From Candidatus Magasanikiibacteriota bacterium (lineage in GTDB: Bacteria; Patescibacteriota; Patescibacteriia; Magasanikbacterales; 2-02-FULL-50-9b), in NCBI GenBank assembly GCA_943355025.1, contig CALRDW010000005.1, forward strand, positions 244 to 64,243: 64,000 nucleotides of DNA, given 5' to 3'. The stretch's first letter is position 1. The number at the start of each line of letters is the position of its first letter. Under the pieces are notes generated by a model, which saw only the letters and a list, made by a program, of their open reading frames with translations, did not search any database and had not been told where the DNA came from. The translations under genes were made by a program, and so were the position numbers. This document shows, piece after piece, positions 1,744-8,379 of this stretch.

Positions 1744-2067
1744 TCAGACACTTAACAGGCCGAGTTCCTCCAGACGGGCAACCACACTCACCTGTTTGCG
1801 CAGACGATTGCGAATGAACTGAATCGCCGGCGCCAATCCCGCGTCCGCGCTCACGATGATTGCGTGATCATACGCATCCTCGCGCGCGCCCACGAGCAGG
1901 TCAACGACCAACGCGACGTCAAACCCGCGCGGCGAGTTTTTATTGTACTGCGTGCAGACAATCCGCGGATCCACATTTTTGATAAACTCCTCCGCCTTTT
2001 TCCGCTGCTCCGGATCCGCCGCGACCAAAAAATCAAAAAATATGTGCACTCTCCCCTGCGTTTGCAT
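1744..2067 (-). CDS. small NYN/LabA-like (PIN-like) domain protein
   Basis: N-terminal RVHIFFD strand and the motif FDVALVVDLL...HAIIVSADAGLAPAIQ, typical of the NYN (DUF88) fold. The protein is short (107 aa). Confidence 0.45.
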   Translation of the reverse strand: MQTQGRVHIFFDFLVAADPEQRKKAEEFIKNVDPRIVCTQYNKNSPRGFDVALVVDLLVGAREDAYDHAIIVSADAGLAPAIQFIRNRLRKQVSVVARLEELGLLSV

Positions 2068-2242
2068 AGAAATAGATTAGTTTGAATGACTATCTATACT
2101 GGGTGACATGGATGGAAAGGTTTGTCAAGGGACTAACATCATGAGAATACACAGCGCTTTAAAAAAAGGTCACAGCGACACGGAATGAATCGTTTTCTGG
2201 AGCATAGCGAAAGAAAAACACTATGAACCAGCACCAGTATGC

Positions 2243-2752
2243 CTATAATTCTCCTTGTTGTCCGCATGTAGGGCATGGCTCATGTGATTTTGCCATATCG
2301 TTTTTATGTTCCAAAAAACAGTGTGCTGTTTTACCTAATGACCTTACAAGTTTTCGCTCACTCGTTATTAAACCACCCATTGTTTTTCCTTTATGGAAAT
2401 CAACTAGCATTCCCACTCCTACATCTTGAAGAAATTTAATCCCAATTAAATTTCTATCACCTTGCACTACTGTAATTTGGTAATTTTCTATTACTAAGTC
2501 TCCAAACCTAAGATTAGCATTACGTATTTGACCTCTTGTTTGTCCCGAACCAGCTCCAGTGCTTATAACTACCTCTCCTTTTACTTTTGCACAAACTGCA
2601 TCTGCTAATTCTTGTGTCAGTATTATGCCAAATATAGACCCAGTATCTACATAGGCGTTAAAATCATATGAACCGTGCCCATCAAAAACTTCGCCTGTCA
2701 GAATAAGCTTACCTTCATCATCAATACTGAGTTTCCCAGATTTTCGCTCCAT
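2243..2752 (-). CDS. retropepsin-like (clan AA) aspartic protease
   Basis: FNAYVDTGS catalytic D-T-G-S motif in a roughly 170-aa protein. GC is low (about 40%). It has its own TTGCTT-17-TAAATA promoter-like element upstream. Confidence 0.5.
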   Translation of the reverse strand: MERKSGKLSIDDEGKLILTGEVFDGHGSYDFNAYVDTGSIFGIILTQELADAVCAKVKGEVVISTGAGSGQTRGQIRNANLRFGDLVIENYQITVVQGDRNLIGIKFLQDVGVGMLVDFHKGKTMGGLITSERKLVRSLGKTAHCFLEHKNDMAKSHEPCPTCGQQGEL

Positions 2753-2878
2753 AGTTTTGTAGAATGACAGTATTTAGTACAAAGTCACTAGATAAGCAAT
2801 GTTTGACAGAGATATAATACACGCGCAAGGCGAGCATAGGAAAGGGTCTAAAACATATATTACGCCAGCCAAAACATA

Positions 2879-3961
2879 TTATTCACGTTCACCTAAAATA
2901 AATTCTGCACGCTTAAATAACTCATCGAAAGTAAGAATTTCCACAGCATGAATACCTTGCCGAAATCTTTCGAAAGAATTCCTTTGGTCTCTATCCGCCG
3001 CTATCTGACTTAGCTTGCCAATTAATAGAATCCCTTTTGGGATAACGGTGTAGGCTTCGTTTTCTTCAAATCTGTCTCGATTGTCATCTGTCCTAGAGCC
3101 GGTGATTTCCCATGTGCTTAGATTTGCCTGCAATTGAGTGATGCCGTCTGTCAGTTCTTTTGCCACACTCCAAGCACCATTGCGCTGCGCTGAAGCTCCT
3201 TGAATAATAGGTGTTGCGGGAGTTTTTATCTCAACTAATACAGTAAATTTGATGTCTCCTTCAGCAGTACATAGTGTATCTCCTCTTTGTCCGCCAGTAC
3301 CATCAACCCTTGTACCACCATAGTGCGGCTGACTTTGTTCTTGCTTTAGAATTTGGTAATTCAAGCCATAGCCGAATATCCACCGATTCCTTTCGAAGAA
3401 ATCCTGCCAATAAGCCTCCTCTCCAACCCCCTTGATTGGCAAGCTAGTTCTGAATTCTTCTAATGCTTCGAGCCTAGTTTCATGAAGATGGTTTAACAAT
3501 ATTTTCTTAGCAAGTTCCGGAGCATTTTCCTTTAGTAAGGACCAAAATTCTTCAGAGTAATTATTGTCTAAAATTTGCTGAAGTACCTGCCGCTTATTTG
3601 CATCGTCTATTACGATAACCCTATCTGAAGGAGCTACAACATATTCTTGGTATCCAGACACCACTCCTTGTTCAGCAATTTTTCGACGTTTTTGAATTTC
3701 TTCACAGAATATTTTTGTTTGCTCTGTGCCCAGCTCGATCTCTACTCCCTCATATAATTTTAGTTTTCTAAAATCTTGCCCATCCAACTGTTCCCATTTT
3801 TTGTCTCTTTCTTTTTTAAATCGAACAAGTATTCCACGAACGCCTCCGGAATGAATTGCTGGTTTGAAAATTAACACCGTATCAGATGTTTGCTTCAATA
3901 CGATCCAATCTGTTTTGGCAAACCCTGTAGTTACTGTTAGTGTTTTTATTTTATCGCTCAC
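2879..3961 (-). CDS. DUF4263 (Shedu-like) protein with a PD-(D/E)xK nuclease core
   Basis: C-terminal WQDFFERNRWIFGYGL...RGDTL...VLVEIKTP...ILTFDELFKRAE, that is D...EIK of the restriction-endonuclease fold. GTG start 23 nt downstream of the preceding stop. Low GC. Confidence 0.45.
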   Translation of the reverse strand: MSDKIKTLTVTTGFAKTDWIVLKQTSDTVLIFKPAIHSGGVRGILVRFKKERDKKWEQLDGQDFRKLKLYEGVEIELGTEQTKIFCEEIQKRRKIAEQGVVSGYQEYVVAPSDRVIVIDDANKRQVLQQILDNNYSEEFWSLLKENAPELAKKILLNHLHETRLEALEEFRTSLPIKGVGEEAYWQDFFERNRWIFGYGLNYQILKQEQSQPHYGGTRVDGTGGQRGDTLCTAEGDIKFTVLVEIKTPATPIIQGASAQRNGAWSVAKELTDGITQLQANLSTWEITGSRTDDNRDRFEENEAYTVIPKGILLIGKLSQIAADRDQRNSFERFRQGIHAVEILTFDELFKRAEFILGERE

Positions 3962-3984
3962 AGAGAAAAGTATATTTACGCAAA

Positions 3985-5868
3985 CTATTTTTTATAGGAG
4001 CCCTTAAACAATTTTCCAATCTCCTCATCCTCAAAATACACGAAACATCCTTTCATCCCTCGTGTCATCAAGGTTCGATAGGTATTTTTAATAATCGCAT
4101 CTGCTTTTTCGCGTGCACCAATTGGATCAATCTTCAATGCAGCCTTAAAACCAGATAACGACTTGTCCGTACGCGCACGCTTTGTTGGATCTGTGATCAC
4201 CTGTCCATCGCGCACAATTAAATCGCGGCCAACGATCACACCCACATAATCAACCTCCAAACCTTGGCATGTGTGAATACAACCAATTTGATTGACCGAC
4301 TCCGGCGCTTGAATCCACAAATTCCCATCTGTCGCCAAATTCCATTGCATACCAAAATCATGTTCGGGAATAATAACATCCATAGCGGATTTATCATTAC
4401 GACTCACCCAATTCCAACAATATCCCGCAACCAATCGTGCCTTGTTAGAAATTTTGCCATCTTTGTCGAGAACATTATTTTTTTCAATAATCAAATCGCG
4501 CAATTCATTCGGTGAATCAACGACACGAAAATCATAGTCGAAATCTGAAAACTCCAAATTTGCCGTTTCACGAATTTGCAACATGTTATCGAGCCACGCT
4601 AAATATCCATCAGAACCATTACACCGAAACTGCGACGTTAGCTCCATGTGTGTCACTTTCGCACCTGCCTCACGCGCAATTTTTTCAATTTCATCTTTCG
4701 AACCAATATCAGACCAGGTCACTCGCTGATCTTCATCAATAAAAAATACAGAACATTTTGCCGCCGCAATAATTTCCTTGATCTGATTTTCACCCTTGTT
4801 TTTATAAATACCTGATTTTTCATTTAAACGATGCGCCTCATCAACCACGAGTGCATCAAATGAATTTGCCTCACAACCAATGAACACACCCGAACTTAAA
4901 AAGAAGTTCCGTATGTCCACTCTTCGCATATGTCCAACAAGGCGGCTGTAAAACACATCCCGCGGAGCAGCATTTTTCGTAACGTAACGAACATTCTTAT
5001 GATCTTGTTTTGTAATGTCAACCAATAAATTAACCGCAACAACCGACTTCCCAGTACCAGGGCCACCTTGAACAATTAAAACATTTTTATTACTTTCTGC
5101 AGATGTACGCGCCAACATGAGCGCGTTTTCGTAAACTATTTTTTGCTCATCTATCATCAAAAATTCTTTATTTCCTTTTAACAACGAAGCAAGGCTGTCT
5201 ACCAATTTTTTTGATGGCTTAATCTCGCCATTGTCGACCCTAAACATTATATTATTCTTGTCACCATATTTAACAAACTGTTTGATAAATGCGGCCAATT
5301 TTCTCGTATCGCTTTTTAAAAAAACAGGCGCTTGCTCAGTGTATTCACGATAAAAATCGTTTCGAATAACATCATCCTCATTATAATTATGCAAATAAGC
5401 ACACGGATGTATACGAATATCATCGTCTTCCACGGTCTTGCTGAAACCCTTAAGCAATTCCGAATATGTAAGCGCTTGATATGACGGATGATTTGCTTCA
5501 CGAATACCACCACCAACCCACGTGCTCACAATTGCGTCTTTATCAGTCATGTCAGCGGACTCCCACTGTTTGAGTTCGACCAAAACAACATGGTCCGAAC
5601 CATTTTCTCCTTGACCACTCAAAATAAAATCAACACGCTTGCGGCTCAGCGGAATCATGTACTCAATTGATACCACTGAACCACCTGGTATCTCTTCATC
5701 AACCAATACACCGTGCATGAAACGCAAAGAATTTGCGAAAGCACGAACTTCCGCATGAGTCGCGGTTACATTAACCTTCTTTCGAAGATACTCAAAAATA
5801 ATGTCGGCGATATCGCCATCAATCACGTGATCAAGAAACTCTGTTTTAGGATATGAATATACAATCAT
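3985..5868 (-). CDS. DUF2075 / Schlafen-like protein: N-terminal PD-(D/E)xK nuclease plus SF1-helicase-like P-loop ATPase
   Basis: Nuclease motif RVDFIL...VVLVELKQWE. Walker A IVQGGPGTGKS. DEAH-box ALVVDEAHRL. Helicase motifs V and VI GCIHTCQGLEVDYVGVIV and TLMTRGMKGCFVYF. ATGA start/stop overlap with the upstream MazG-like gene. Confidence 0.6.
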   Translation of the reverse strand: MIVYSYPKTEFLDHVIDGDIADIIFEYLRKKVNVTATHAEVRAFANSLRFMHGVLVDEEIPGGSVVSIEYMIPLSRKRVDFILSGQGENGSDHVVLVELKQWESADMTDKDAIVSTWVGGGIREANHPSYQALTYSELLKGFSKTVEDDDIRIHPCAYLHNYNEDDVIRNDFYREYTEQAPVFLKSDTRKLAAFIKQFVKYGDKNNIMFRVDNGEIKPSKKLVDSLASLLKGNKEFLMIDEQKIVYENALMLARTSAESNKNVLIVQGGPGTGKSVVAVNLLVDITKQDHKNVRYVTKNAAPRDVFYSRLVGHMRRVDIRNFFLSSGVFIGCEANSFDALVVDEAHRLNEKSGIYKNKGENQIKEIIAAAKCSVFFIDEDQRVTWSDIGSKDEIEKIAREAGAKVTHMELTSQFRCNGSDGYLAWLDNMLQIRETANLEFSDFDYDFRVVDSPNELRDLIIEKNNVLDKDGKISNKARLVAGYCWNWVSRNDKSAMDVIIPEHDFGMQWNLATDGNLWIQAPESVNQIGCIHTCQGLEVDYVGVIVGRDLIVRDGQVITDPTKRARTDKSLSGFKAALKIDPIGAREKADAIIKNTYRTLMTRGMKGCFVYFEDEEIGKLFKGSYKK

Positions 5869-6221
5869 ACGTCTGTATACTCCGTATACTTCCCAAACTT
5901 CCCCCTCGCCTTCTCAACCGGATACTTCCCCTCATTCTCCCCCATCTTGCGCGCAAACGCCGCGCCCAAATCAATCCCCAAGTCGTGCGCCATGAGTAAC
6001 ACCCAGTAGAGCGTGTCAGCGAGCTCGTCGCCAACGTCATCCGTGTGCGCGCGCAGGTGCGCGGCAATGTCATCCGCGCTCTTCCACTGAAAATGCTCAA
6101 GCACCTCCGTGGCCTCAAGCACAAGCGAGATCGCCACATCCTTCGGATTATGAAACTGCTTCCAATCGCGCGCGTCGCGGAAGGCAACAATCTTCTGAGT
6201 TAATTCCTGAATCGAATCCAT
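5865..6221 (-). CDS. MazG-like nucleoside triphosphate pyrophosphohydrolase (small all-alpha NTP-PPase)
   Basis: EATEVLEHFQW and DELADTLYWVL metal-binding helices typical of the MazG/YpjD family. About 57% GC, unlike the downstream genes. Confidence 0.6.
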   Translation of the reverse strand: MDSIQELTQKIVAFRDARDWKQFHNPKDVAISLVLEATEVLEHFQWKSADDIAAHLRAHTDDVGDELADTLYWVLLMAHDLGIDLGAAFARKMGENEGKYPVEKARGKFGKYTEYTDV

Positions 6222-6230
6222 AGTGCCCCC

Positions 6231-6259
6231 ATCATACCCACTTTCTCTAAATCAAACAA
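6231..6259 (-). promoter_or_regulatory. sigma70-like promoter of the MazG-DUF2075-DUF4263 operon
   Basis: Minus strand reads TTGTTT, a 17-nt spacer, TATGAT, then about 9 nt with GGGGG before the ATG at 6221. Confidence 0.45.
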
Positions 6260-6268
6260 TACACCTAG

Positions 6269-6297
6269 TTGACACACCAAATCACACATGTTATATT
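6269..6297 (+). promoter_or_regulatory. divergent sigma70-like promoter driving the small-RNA candidate
   Basis: TTGACA, a 17-nt spacer, TATATT on the plus strand. Confidence 0.45.
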
Positions 6298-6302
6298 TTA
6301 TT

Positions 6303-6431
6303 CGAAGCTTACAATAATAACTTTTGGGACGCTTCGGTGCTCCCCCGGAATATCTGGGGTCTCAGCCGAGGAGAACGAATCCAAGAGACGTAGCTTCACC
6401 AAAACTCCCGATCACTTGATCGGGTTTTTTG
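6303..6431 (+). ncRNA. candidate structured small RNA of unknown class (about 125 nt)
   Basis: Bounded by a consensus promoter and an intrinsic terminator (cccgatca..tgatcggg followed by ttttttgtt). Internal hairpins: cgcUUCGgug, ccccgg/ctgggg and gtctc..gagac. The only ORF here runs through the terminator, so no plausible coding sequence. Confidence 0.35.
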
Positions 6432-6434
6432 TTA

Positions 6435-7082
6435 TCAGACAAACAGTTCGATGCCAGTACCGACGATATTTTCCTTCAAAATATCCATACATTCCTGCCC
6501 CAACGGTTTTTCATTCAAATACGCCGCAATTGCGCCGGCGATCCAATCTGCAATTTGTATATTTCGATCTACAGCCGAATCGACGCGGTCAATTCTGACC
6601 TTCGTTCCTCGTAAAGCATCCTTATAAATTTTTGTTCTGAGCATTTCTTTAAATTCAACATCAGTCACACCCTTTAATCGCCGCTGATCACAAATAACAA
6701 AAAATTCCTTATCGGTCGATGGAAAATATTGCTCGATCACCTTTCCAACCATATGTGTATACAGCAGCCCACCCTGGATGATGCTTTTACGCATATATTT
6801 CGTAGGAAAATTTTCACATTTAAAATATACAAATTGGATTCTCACTTCAAGCGAGCAGATAAAACGAAGCGTCCGAAGCCTAAGTGCACGGTCTATCCCA
6901 TTCCCTGAATATTTTATCTCGGCCAGTGCCCGCATTTTCTTCGGGAATTTAGTTCGACACCATGCTTTAAATCGTTTTGCTGATTTTTTAGGATCATCAA
7001 CAGTAAAAGATGCAATAATAAAATATCGCTCGTTTCCCCGTTCAACAAACGGACCACTTTCATCAATAAAAATAGTTGCCAT
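6435..7082 (-). CDS. DUF3800 family protein
   Basis: N-terminal MATIFIDESG, the hallmark DUF3800 start motif. Low GC. Its stop abuts the bidirectional terminator. Confidence 0.55.
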   Translation of the reverse strand: MATIFIDESGPFVERGNERYFIIASFTVDDPKKSAKRFKAWCRTKFPKKMRALAEIKYSGNGIDRALRLRTLRFICSLEVRIQFVYFKCENFPTKYMRKSIIQGGLLYTHMVGKVIEQYFPSTDKEFFVICDQRRLKGVTDVEFKEMLRTKIYKDALRGTKVRIDRVDSAVDRNIQIADWIAGAIAAYLNEKPLGQECMDILKENIVGTGIELFV

Positions 7083-7231: not shown

Positions 7232-8179
7232 TTATCGATCCCACAAAAACCCTCTCCCAAAATGCCCCCACATGCACGTCTCCGCATATCGCACGTCAGC
7301 CAACCGGAGCGCCCCCCGAATCCCCGCCGGCGACAAATCATACCCGCTCACAACCTCCTCAACCCCATCCACCACCGCAGAGGCCATAACCGGTTCCGCC
7401 TTCCCAATCGCATACGCCAATTTCACGACAACCTCTCGCGCCCCCACGCGCGCACCCAACAAATCCACCGCAATCTTCCGCGCCATATACGCGCCCGACC
7501 GATCGACCTTCGTGTAATCCTTCCCCGAAAACGAACCGCCGCCAATCGCAACCTCCGGCCCGTAATTGTCGACGATCAATTTGCGCCCCGACAAACCCGT
7601 GTCCGCGTCGAACCCGCCCTGCGTCCATTCGCCCGCCCGATTAATAATATATTCCCCCGCGCCCGGAATCACAGCCTGCACAATCGCCAATAAATCCGCG
7701 CTCTTAGTATTCTGAAAACTCGCGACCACGCATGTGACCACCCCATCCTCAACCGTCACCTGCGTTTTGCCGTCAAACGGATACACGCCAAAAATCGCCT
7801 GACACAGCCGCCGCGCCAAAACGTACTCCAAAGGCAACAACTCCGGAGTCTCTGCACACGCATACCCCTTCATAATTCCCTGGTCGCCCGCGCCACCCGT
7901 ATCAACGCCCTGCGCAATCTCCGGACTCTGCCGCGCAATATTCGTCAAAACCACAAACTCCTCGCCCACAATATCCCGCACCACCCGCTGCATATCCGGC
8001 GCCACTCCCGCCGCCGTCACCTCTCCATTAATCGTCACCAAATTATGCCCGCCCATCACCTCAATCGCCACGCGCGCCCGCGGGTCAACCGCCAAGTACG
8101 CGTCGAGAATGCTGTCCGCAATAAAATCACAAATCTTGTCCGGGTGCTTCGGTGAAACGAACTCTGCTGTCTTAATCAT
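7232..8179 (-). CDS. metK: S-adenosylmethionine synthetase (short form, 315 aa)
   Basis: HPDKICDFIADSILDA N-terminus and the GAGDQGIMKGYA signature. Confidence 0.85.
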   Translation of the reverse strand: MIKTAEFVSPKHPDKICDFIADSILDAYLAVDPRARVAIEVMGGHNLVTINGEVTAAGVAPDMQRVVRDIVGEEFVVLTNIARQSPEIAQGVDTGGAGDQGIMKGYACAETPELLPLEYVLARRLCQAIFGVYPFDGKTQVTVEDGVVTCVVASFQNTKSADLLAIVQAVIPGAGEYIINRAGEWTQGGFDADTGLSGRKLIVDNYGPEVAIGGGSFSGKDYTKVDRSGAYMARKIAVDLLGARVGAREVVVKLAYAIGKAEPVMASAVVDGVEEVVSGYDLSPAGIRGALRLADVRYAETCMWGHFGRGFLWDR

Positions 8180-8198: not shown

Positions 8199-8352
8199 AA
8201 AATAAAAAATCCTGTGAATAATACAGGAAAGATTGCCGCATAATATCTTTCCCGTTGCCGGGCTGGATGTGGCACCTGTCGCGCACGCCGCATGCGTCGT
8301 CGATGGTTGCCGGTGGGTCAGTGAGCCAGTGCTCTCGCCACTCTCTAGATAA
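8199..8352 (-). promoter_or_regulatory. SAM-I (S-box) riboswitch with terminator expression platform in the metK leader
   Basis: Minus strand reads UAUCUAGAGAGUGGCGAGAGCACUGGCUCACUGACCCACCGGCAACC ... GGUGCCACAUCC ... GAAAGAUA, matching the S-box consensus including P1 UAUCU/AGAUA. An antiterminator ggaaagat/atctttcc and a terminator cctgtattattcacagg plus U-run follow. Confidence 0.8.
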
Positions 8353-8379
8353 TTACTTCTTTAATTGTCGGACCTAATT

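Follow-up and report, generated by a model that had tools for sequence, protein, structure and literature searches.

Do defence genes that lie close together on one strand work as one system, or do they share a site while remaining independent of one another? We addressed this question for a locus in a 64,000-nucleotide (nt) stretch of a Candidatus Magasanikiibacteriota genome (GenBank assembly GCA_943355025.1, contig CALRDW010000005.1). This whole stretch is hereafter called the window, all coordinates follow its numbering, and L-numbers denote the loci with which it was compared. From metK to the gene of a short NYN-domain protein, five minus-strand genes follow one another, which encode a DUF3800 protein, a MazG-like protein, a DUF2075 protein, a Shedu nuclease and a retropepsin-like protease. 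A first-pass annotation, made from the sequence alone, had read the last four as a candidate composite anti-phage system and had kept a juxtaposition of separate systems as its fallback. It is this fallback that came closest to the truth: the region is probably a defence-gene hotspot with independent modules and not one system, the MazG-DUF2075 pair, Shedu, the protease and the DUF3800 gene with its RNA being separate from each other. The same annotation was right to see a defence island here, and an operon in MazG and DUF2075.

The genomes most closely related to the window differ at precisely this site. The closest relatives of its DUF2075 protein (72% and 71% identity) are encoded on two contigs, L083 and L084, the metK DNA of which is 85% identical to that of the window. 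All three share the backbone metK…MazG-DUF2075…NYN, with NYN orthologs in L083 (12485-12820) and L084 (7172-7486) recognized by phmmer at 3e-38 and 4e-31. The interval between DUF2075 and NYN comprises 1.87 kb with Shedu and the protease in the window, 50 bp in L084, and 2.55 kb in L083, where it holds a full-length ThsB-like TIR protein (PADLOC, 4e-118), a 93-amino-acid (aa) open reading frame (ORF) and a Trypsin_2 protein; that locus showed no ThsA. The metK-MazG interval is equally variable, and L083 and L084 carry other genes instead of DUF3800. An effector, nuclease or TIR, followed by a protease occurs twice at the same site, in the window and in L083 (10005-12303), with unrelated proteins. 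Flanking repeats and att- or attC-like sites were sought around the 1.87-kb insert, and only short repeats at chance level were found.

Two censuses viewed the combination from both sides. The Shedu-anchored census covered the 80 best-matching metagenomic Shedu loci (457 kb), and profile hidden Markov models (HMMs) found DUF2075, MazG or the protease in none of them. The DUF2075-anchored census covered the best 80 of at least 594 relatives confirmed in a species-level genome collection (968 kb, 53-61% identity); phmmer and profile HMMs detected neither Shedu nor the protease at any of these 80 MazG-DUF2075 loci. Close homologs of Shedu have a different neighbour each time, namely DUF3800/PGM (85% identity), a SacI restriction-modification (R-M) system and LexA (84%), DUF4357 (81%), or a serine recombinase and a type ISP R-M system (72%). 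Homologs of the protease adjoin unknowns (87%), an integrase fragment and HEPN/MNT (72%), the dnaK operon (66%), or a PLD-helicase and a recombinase (63%). The closest homologs of both proteins thus often lie beside recombinases, R-M systems or toxin-antitoxin genes. At the DNA level, homology to other contigs is limited to 3960-2879 for Shedu, which are the borders of its ORF, and to 2775-2248 for the protease. DUF3800 was considered as a common partner of Shedu and rejected, as the DUF3800 gene beside the 85%-identical Shedu (L092/L093) is divergently oriented and not detectably homologous to that of the window.

Because the sister genomes differ at the site, both censuses returned zero of 80, the closest homologs sit in unrelated contexts and homology ends at ORF borders, a four-gene system is not supported, and the genes appear to have come together at a hotspot by chance. 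The first-pass annotation had proposed such a neighbourhood census and had named homologs that are never linked as the sign of a chance encounter; this is what we found for Shedu and the protease, in a three-gene as well as a four-gene version of the system, and not for MazG and DUF2075, which are a truly conserved pair. We therefore judge it very improbable that MazG, DUF2075 and Shedu, joined or not by the protease, make up a single anti-phage system of interdependent parts. The genes do lie on one strand, MazG and DUF2075 overlap by ATGA, no terminator is predicted in the 23 nt that separate DUF2075 from Shedu, and all of the proteins are plausible defence enzymes. An NTP (nucleoside triphosphate)-hydrolysing MazG could in principle even license Shedu, given that the nuclease of the two-component system KELShedu is inhibited by physiological NTP levels (PMC12577705). 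Yet neither Shedu nor the protease was found with MazG or DUF2075 at any of the 160 loci, the place of Shedu is taken in the sister genomes by a ThsB-like TIR or left empty, and the Shedu protein matches the autonomous Bacillus cereus-type SduA over its full length.

The Shedu protein reaches 96.6 bits against SduA_C (DUF4263, PF14082) and 30.2 bits against the B. cereus-type SduA_N sensor domain (cut-off 27 in both cases), matches PADLOC SduA models down to E 1e-62, and aligns with the solved SduA structure 8TI8 from residue 2 to 354 (E 1.7e-28). The D...VEIK core noticed at first reading is real: 17 homologs of 40-85% identity all keep D228...E244-I-K246. The stop codon of DUF2075 (TAG) ends at 3985 and the GTG start of Shedu follows 23 nt on, at 3961, just as originally described; this GTG lines up with the ATG of the 85%-identical homolog. 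Close homologs and the 80 further loci share no neighbour, which is the pattern of an autonomous single gene. We regard Shedu as a canonical single-gene cassette that was, to judge by these comparisons, acquired separately. The literature describes Shedu as a single-gene system that is often embedded among other defences, including R-M and BREX loci (10.1101/2023.08.10.552793), and SduA as a sensor of DNA ends (10.1101/2023.08.10.552762). SduA is a tetramer, and the detection of free ends falls to its N-terminal domains.

Shedu would thus have landed behind DUF2075, where it would be expressed by read-through and act alone as an end-sensing nuclease. Because no terminator is predicted in the 23-nt gap, it is probably co-transcribed with MazG-DUF2075, and a promoter of its own is probably absent. 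The promoter from which the first-pass annotation had the three genes transcribed can be read directly from the sequence (TTGTTT at 6259-6254, TATGAT at 6236-6231), and its position is kept in L084 (TTGTTA-17-TATGAT); in L083 it is weaker, with the -10 element retained as TAAGAT. As a prediction it held up less well: with three and five of six consensus positions the element stays below the threshold of our consensus scan, which gave 15 promoter-like sites in the region against 14.3 expected in shuffled sequence and hence no excess. It ends 9 nt before the ATG of MazG, a distance that implies a leaderless or nearly leaderless mRNA. The promoter once ascribed to the protease was not recovered, the scan finding none on the strand of that gene.

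Shared transcription raises the question of whether Shedu, though of independent origin, gains from its position. The co-expressed module might produce free DNA ends or low NTP levels and thereby activate the nuclease; likely co-transcription, the reported sensing of DNA ends by SduA, the NTP inhibition of KELShedu and the frequent location of Shedu inside R-M and BREX loci would all fit. The arrangement does not recur in the censuses, and the argument proceeds purely by analogy. We consider such a benefit quite unlikely.

The protease, too, appears to be a separate, mobile single-gene cassette, an orphan with no conserved partner. Its assignment is marginal with both Pfam models, PF13975 (gag-asp_proteas; 29.6 bits, cut-off 28.2) and PF13650 (26.4 bits, cut-off 24.3); the HMM check supported all four domain identifications of the first-pass annotation. 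The retropepsin-like DTG was correctly seen: all 17 homologs compared share D36-T-G and G98-x-R-N-L, and also H144, H149, C160 and C163, a C-terminal H-x4-H-x10-C-x2-C arrangement that recalls a zinc-binding HHCC element. The family is tiny, with 22 clusters in 5.8 billion proteins, and its named members are Gracilibacteria. We therefore considered genetic code 25 and discarded it: table 11 yields complete ORFs throughout, and the TGA that closes MazG gives the protein the length that its homologs and alignments with Protein Data Bank (PDB) structures predict.

What remains once Shedu and the protease are set aside is a tightly conserved and, judging from gene spacing, translationally coupled operon of MazG and DUF2075. 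A MazG-like gene adjoins DUF2075 at 72 of the 80 census loci, or 72 of 76 informative ones, since the sequence breaks off upstream of DUF2075 in four of the eight exceptions. MazG lies upstream in 62 loci, with a 4-nt overlap in 18 and a gap of at most 72 nt in 60, and just downstream in 10; in the window the MazG stop and the DUF2075 start share the ATGA reported before. The clade is large, with at least 8000 scored 90%-identity clusters, and the best 80 of the at least 594 relatives already span Bacteroidota, several proteobacterial classes, Nitrospira, Verrucomicrobia, Elusimicrobia, Patescibacteria and the archaeal Methanobacterium. Members occur on plasmids of Halomonas, Hymenobacter, Marivirga, Methanosphaera and Halalkalicoccus, and the association with MazG extends to distant DUF2075 relatives (25-38% identity) on plasmids of the Bacillus cereus group, Priestia and Nocardiopsis. 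A third conserved partner was considered and ruled out: clustering of the 134 immediate neighbours gave only small clade-specific clusters, the largest with six members, all of one Halomonas-type clade. PADLOC v2 contains no model for the pair, and our literature searches on DUF2075 with MazG or Shedu, and on MazG-like proteins with helicases and defence, found no paper on it. One locus without a MazG-like gene, on the Hymenobacter canadensis plasmid NZ_CP114769.1 (L097, 6001-9987), has two tandem DUF2075 genes beside an R-M system, and upstream a 207-aa protein with no Pfam match.

The DUF2075 protein combines a nuclease with a helicase. It matches PF09848 (SLFN-g3_helicase) over its full length (337 bits, E 1.5e-100), and the motifs recognized at first reading, D80 with E98-L-K100 among the first 235 residues and the Walker A motif GGPGTGKS and the DEAH box of the ATPase, proved invariant in 18 homologs; motif VI is invariant as well. 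A sequence search of the PDB with a DUF2075 profile gave no matches, and a fold search with a full-length model of the protein retrieved the SF1B helicases Dda, Upf1 and RecD2 as well as human SLFN11. With its N-terminal PD-(D/E)xK domain and an SF1-type DUF2075 core carrying Walker A and DEAH, the protein has the make-up of Nhi and Nhi-like proteins. A full-length match to the Nhi model failed, however: PADLOC Nhi gives 44 bits at model positions 162-331 of 470 only, AbiO 46 bits and PDC-S41 48 bits, all partial, with the Nhi and AbiO matches falling within about residues 170-418. Because these matches are weak and partial, we assign the protein to a clade separate from Nhi and AbiO, as far as its sequence can tell.

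About 31 of the 80 DUF2075 homologs (~39%) carry a C-terminal Peptidase_S24 domain (LexA/UmuD-like) of about 180 aa, for example L035:6983-9388 and L004:6986-9472, and the protein of the window has none. This domain hints at a possible regulation by RecA-stimulated self-cleavage. In the Halomonas-type clade with the S24 domain, the MazG-like gene lies downstream of DUF2075 and not upstream.

The partner protein belongs to the all-alpha NTP pyrophosphatases. It scores 54.3 bits against PF12643 (cut-off 27), and its PDB sequence matches include the archaeal structure 4qgp (6e-17) and dCTP (deoxycytidine triphosphate) pyrophosphatase 1, or RS21-C6 (2a3q/6sqw; 2e-15). Each EXXE...EXXD residue of the metal site (E36, E39, E66 and D69), and each of the substrate-pocket residues R18, W20, H24 and K27 of the RDW..FH.PK motif, is retained in 95% or more of 73 sequences. 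Enzymes of the DCTPP1 type are house-cleaning enzymes. Taken together, these features make the pair a plausible candidate for a two-gene defence module, in which an Nhi-like nuclease-helicase would cooperate with a DCTPP1-like pyrophosphatase.

How such a module could work is suggested by its better-known relatives. Nhi, Nhi-like proteins and AbiO have the same architecture and are experimentally anti-phage, Nhi and Nhi-like as single-gene nuclease-DUF2075 defences (10.1101/776245; 10.1101/2022.05.11.491447); both the helicase and the nuclease activity of Nhi are required for immunity, and phage-specific replication intermediates are its proposed target. By analogy, the DUF2075 protein may load on phage replication intermediates and degrade them, while the MazG-like enzyme may hydrolyse dCTP, modified dCTP or other deoxynucleoside triphosphates (dNTPs), and so either starve phage replication or remove modified nucleotides that protect phage DNA against nucleases. 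We tentatively propose, as a possibility well short of being established, that MazG-DUF2075 is a widespread two-gene anti-phage system that couples removal of dCTP or modified dCTP (possibly of other dNTPs) to Nhi-like destruction of replication intermediates. In a large sub-clade it would be gated by the LexA-like S24 domain through self-cleavage stimulated by RecA and single-stranded DNA, and the site behind the pair would serve as a landing pad for cassettes, such as Shedu or a ThsB-like TIR, that are expressed by read-through.

The surroundings of the pair fit this proposal. Its 134 neighbours are rich in defence-type genes, among them HNH_2 (8), AbiEi (6), PDC-S05 (4-5), PDC-S23 (4), type IV restriction endonucleases and Mrr. 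HNH_2 proteins of about 310 aa and type IV restriction endonucleases of the DUF3427 type recur directly beside it (L009, L048, L061, L068 and others; L001:617-3529). The modification-dependent nucleases in this list (DUF3427 type IV enzymes, HNH_2 and Mrr) fit a link of the pair to modified DNA but do not establish it; an association of DUF2075 with modification-dependent nucleases (MDRE) was noted by Lutz et al. (PMC6765204).

The same two activities could also serve the cell itself. In a DNA-maintenance pair, MazG would clean the pool of non-canonical dNTPs and DUF2075 would process damaged or stalled replication intermediates, with the S24 domain as a tie to the SOS response. The homology to house-cleaning enzymes, the high conservation across phyla, the frequent S24 fusions and the lack of relatives in IMG/VR viral contigs would all suit this role; on the phage side we found a single GenBank "phage" record, Microcystis Mwe-JY31. 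The distribution of the pair, on the other hand, is patchy and includes plasmids of bacteria and archaea, and within the lineage of the window its sequences have diverged far more quickly than metK (64-72% versus 93% amino-acid identity). Moreover, restriction, abortive-infection (Abi) and candidate defence genes lie directly beside it, the hotspot that it occupies gathers Shedu or ThsB, and the proteins of the same architecture are anti-phage by experiment. On balance, we consider a maintenance role unlikely, though still a serious alternative, and retain the pair as a candidate for defence.

Several points weigh against this reading of the locus. Both censuses were confined to the 80 best-matching loci each, many Shedu contigs are short, with at least 2 kb of upstream sequence in only 36 of 80, and the syntenic sister genomes found were just the two. 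Shedu is very likely co-transcribed with MazG-DUF2075, so a functional interplay in this genome is possible. Concerning the pair itself, four DUF2075 loci with ample flanks have no MazG, even at E <= 10 by profile, and a member of the same MazG-like subfamily stands beside topoisomerase III, with no DUF2075, on the Paenibacillus plasmid pART37. DUF2075 proteins of different phyla are 53-61% identical, more than one would usually expect of a defence gene, and we infer the anti-phage role of the pair as well as the nucleotide substrate of its MazG-like protein from sequence.

Base composition adds a historical dimension to the pair. The guanine-plus-cytosine (GC) content is 40.3% in DUF2075, 40.1% in Shedu and 37.5% in the protease, and the low GC noted earlier for these last three genes is thus real. 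MazG (55.5%), NYN (55.9%) and metK (58.2%) are richer, the average of the whole window is 45.9%, and the low-GC stretch picks up again beyond MazG, at DUF3800 (39.8%). The composition jumps exactly at the ATGA overlap, from a third-position GC (GC3) of 0.71 in MazG, similar to the metK and NYN backbone, to 0.37 in DUF2075. With +0.37, this GC3 gap is an extreme outlier against 74 other loci (0.00 ± 0.09), and the orthologous MazG genes of L083 and L084 are low in GC, unlike that of the window. This sharp switch, together with the low-GC orthologs, suggests a recombination breakpoint at the junction of the two genes. The features of the locus are collected in Table 1; NCBIfam gave no informative name for any of the six proteins.

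Table 1. Features of the locus and its flanks, in window coordinates.
Feature	Position	Strand	Evidence and remarks
MazG-like all-alpha NTP pyrophosphatase, DCTPP1/RS21-C6 type, 118 aa	5865-6221	-	PF12643; gene 1 of the conserved two-gene module
DUF2075 / SLFN-g3 nuclease-helicase, 627 aa	3985-5868	-	PF09848; gene 2 of the module; N-terminal PD-(D/E)xK (~residues 1-235) and SF1B-type helicase/ATPase
Shedu SduA, 360 aa, GTG start	2879-3961	-	SduA_C, SduA_N, PADLOC SduA; predicted canonical single-gene nuclease
Retropepsin-like aspartyl protease, 169 aa, orphan	2243-2752	-	PF13975; C-terminal H-x4-H-x10-C-x2-C
DUF3800 protein	6435-7082	-	PF12686, E 1e-10; upstream of MazG
DUF3800-V RNA (RF02964)	6303-6398	+	Rfam, 62.8 bits (gathering score 37.4)
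Short NYN-domain protein	1744-2067	-	PF01936; right-hand hotspot flank in three related genomes
Putative MazG-DUF2075 promoter	6231-6259	-	TTGTTT, 17-nt spacer, TATGAT
Variable segment, 1.87 kb (Shedu and protease)	2129-4001	.	blastn against sister L084: homology stops at 4002 and resumes at 2128
metK, short S-adenosylmethionine synthetase (315 aa)	7232-8179		Housekeeping flank
S-adenosylmethionine (SAM) riboswitch (RF00162, 52 bits)	8240-8355	-	Upstream of metK; ordinary cis-regulation

The DUF3800 gene and its RNA form a further separate module. The DUF3800-V RNA matches the full covariance model, and 37 nt separate it from the stop codon of DUF3800, which is followed by a terminator-like hairpin (6424-6407). 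On the plus strand, a promoter at 6269-6297 (TTGACA-17-TATATT, matching 11 of 12 positions, with a TG) precedes the RNA, and a hairpin followed by a T-run at 6407-6424 terminates it. A complete small-RNA gene (6269-6432, plus strand) thus converges on DUF3800 and stands back-to-back with the putative MazG promoter. The DUF3800 RNA motifs have no assigned function (PMC5737381). At the other end of the hotspot, the NYN protein (104-111 aa) keeps its position in the three genomes at an amino-acid identity of 51-56%, compared with 93% for metK, and has a weak PADLOC match to the candidate HEC-09. It may itself be defence-related.

Shedu and the nuclease-DUF2075 architecture are already known; the pairing of a MazG-like protein with DUF2075 is, as far as our searches of PADLOC v2 and the literature reach, new. 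The locus cautions that operon-like spacing within a defence island does not amount to one system. The pair appears to be a good and widespread candidate, although not a surprising one in kind. If it does defend, nucleotide depletion or sanitation and DNA degradation would be joined in one compact operon, and the bacterial relatives of the Schlafen group-3 helicase domain would gain a defined partner.

A comparison with known systems places each component of the hotspot. The Shedu of the window shares with B. cereus-type SduA (PDB 8TI8) the N-terminal sensor, the DUF4263 nuclease with its D...ExK motif, the single-gene cassette and the varied defence contexts, and differs in nothing essential; its peculiarities are the GTG start and the position 23 nt behind another gene. 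With KELShedu (PMC12577705) it has the DUF4263 nuclease in common, but KELShedu works with a second gene, that of the double-stranded-DNA-binding KELA, whereas the window protein belongs to the B. cereus type, which is autonomous, and has no conserved neighbours. The protease shows the DTG and G-R-N-L motifs of bacterial retropepsin-like proteases (Asp_protease_2 / gag-asp_proteas) and, like them, a single domain that presumably dimerises; unlike these, its family has an invariant HHCC and no conserved neighbour, and stands barely above the Pfam cut-off.

The MazG-like protein resembles DCTPP1/RS21-C6 and 4QGP in its single MazG-like domain of about 110 aa and in the same metal-binding and pocket motifs, and differs from them in being translationally coupled to a nuclease-helicase gene; for this family, a role in defence is conjecture. 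In other architectures, MazG-like effectors or domains figure as predicted components of defence systems (10.64898/2026.01.15.699771; PMC13092281). Nucleotide-depletion defences, such as dCTP deaminase, dGTPase or PUA-Cal-HAD with its rare MazG-for-calcineurin swaps, likewise place an enzyme of the (d)NTP pool in a defence locus, but have no DUF2075 nuclease-helicase as a partner. The DUF2075 protein finds its closest parallels in Nhi of Staphylococcus epidermidis (SERP2475), the Nhi-like proteins of Millman et al. (2022) and lactococcal AbiO, which have the same N-terminal PD-(D/E)xK domain and SF1B-type DUF2075 helicase, are located among defence genes and have spread horizontally. For Nhi and Nhi-like one gene suffices, whereas the clade of the window is nearly always coupled to MazG, and many of its members, again unlike Nhi and Nhi-like, add a C-terminal S24 peptidase domain.

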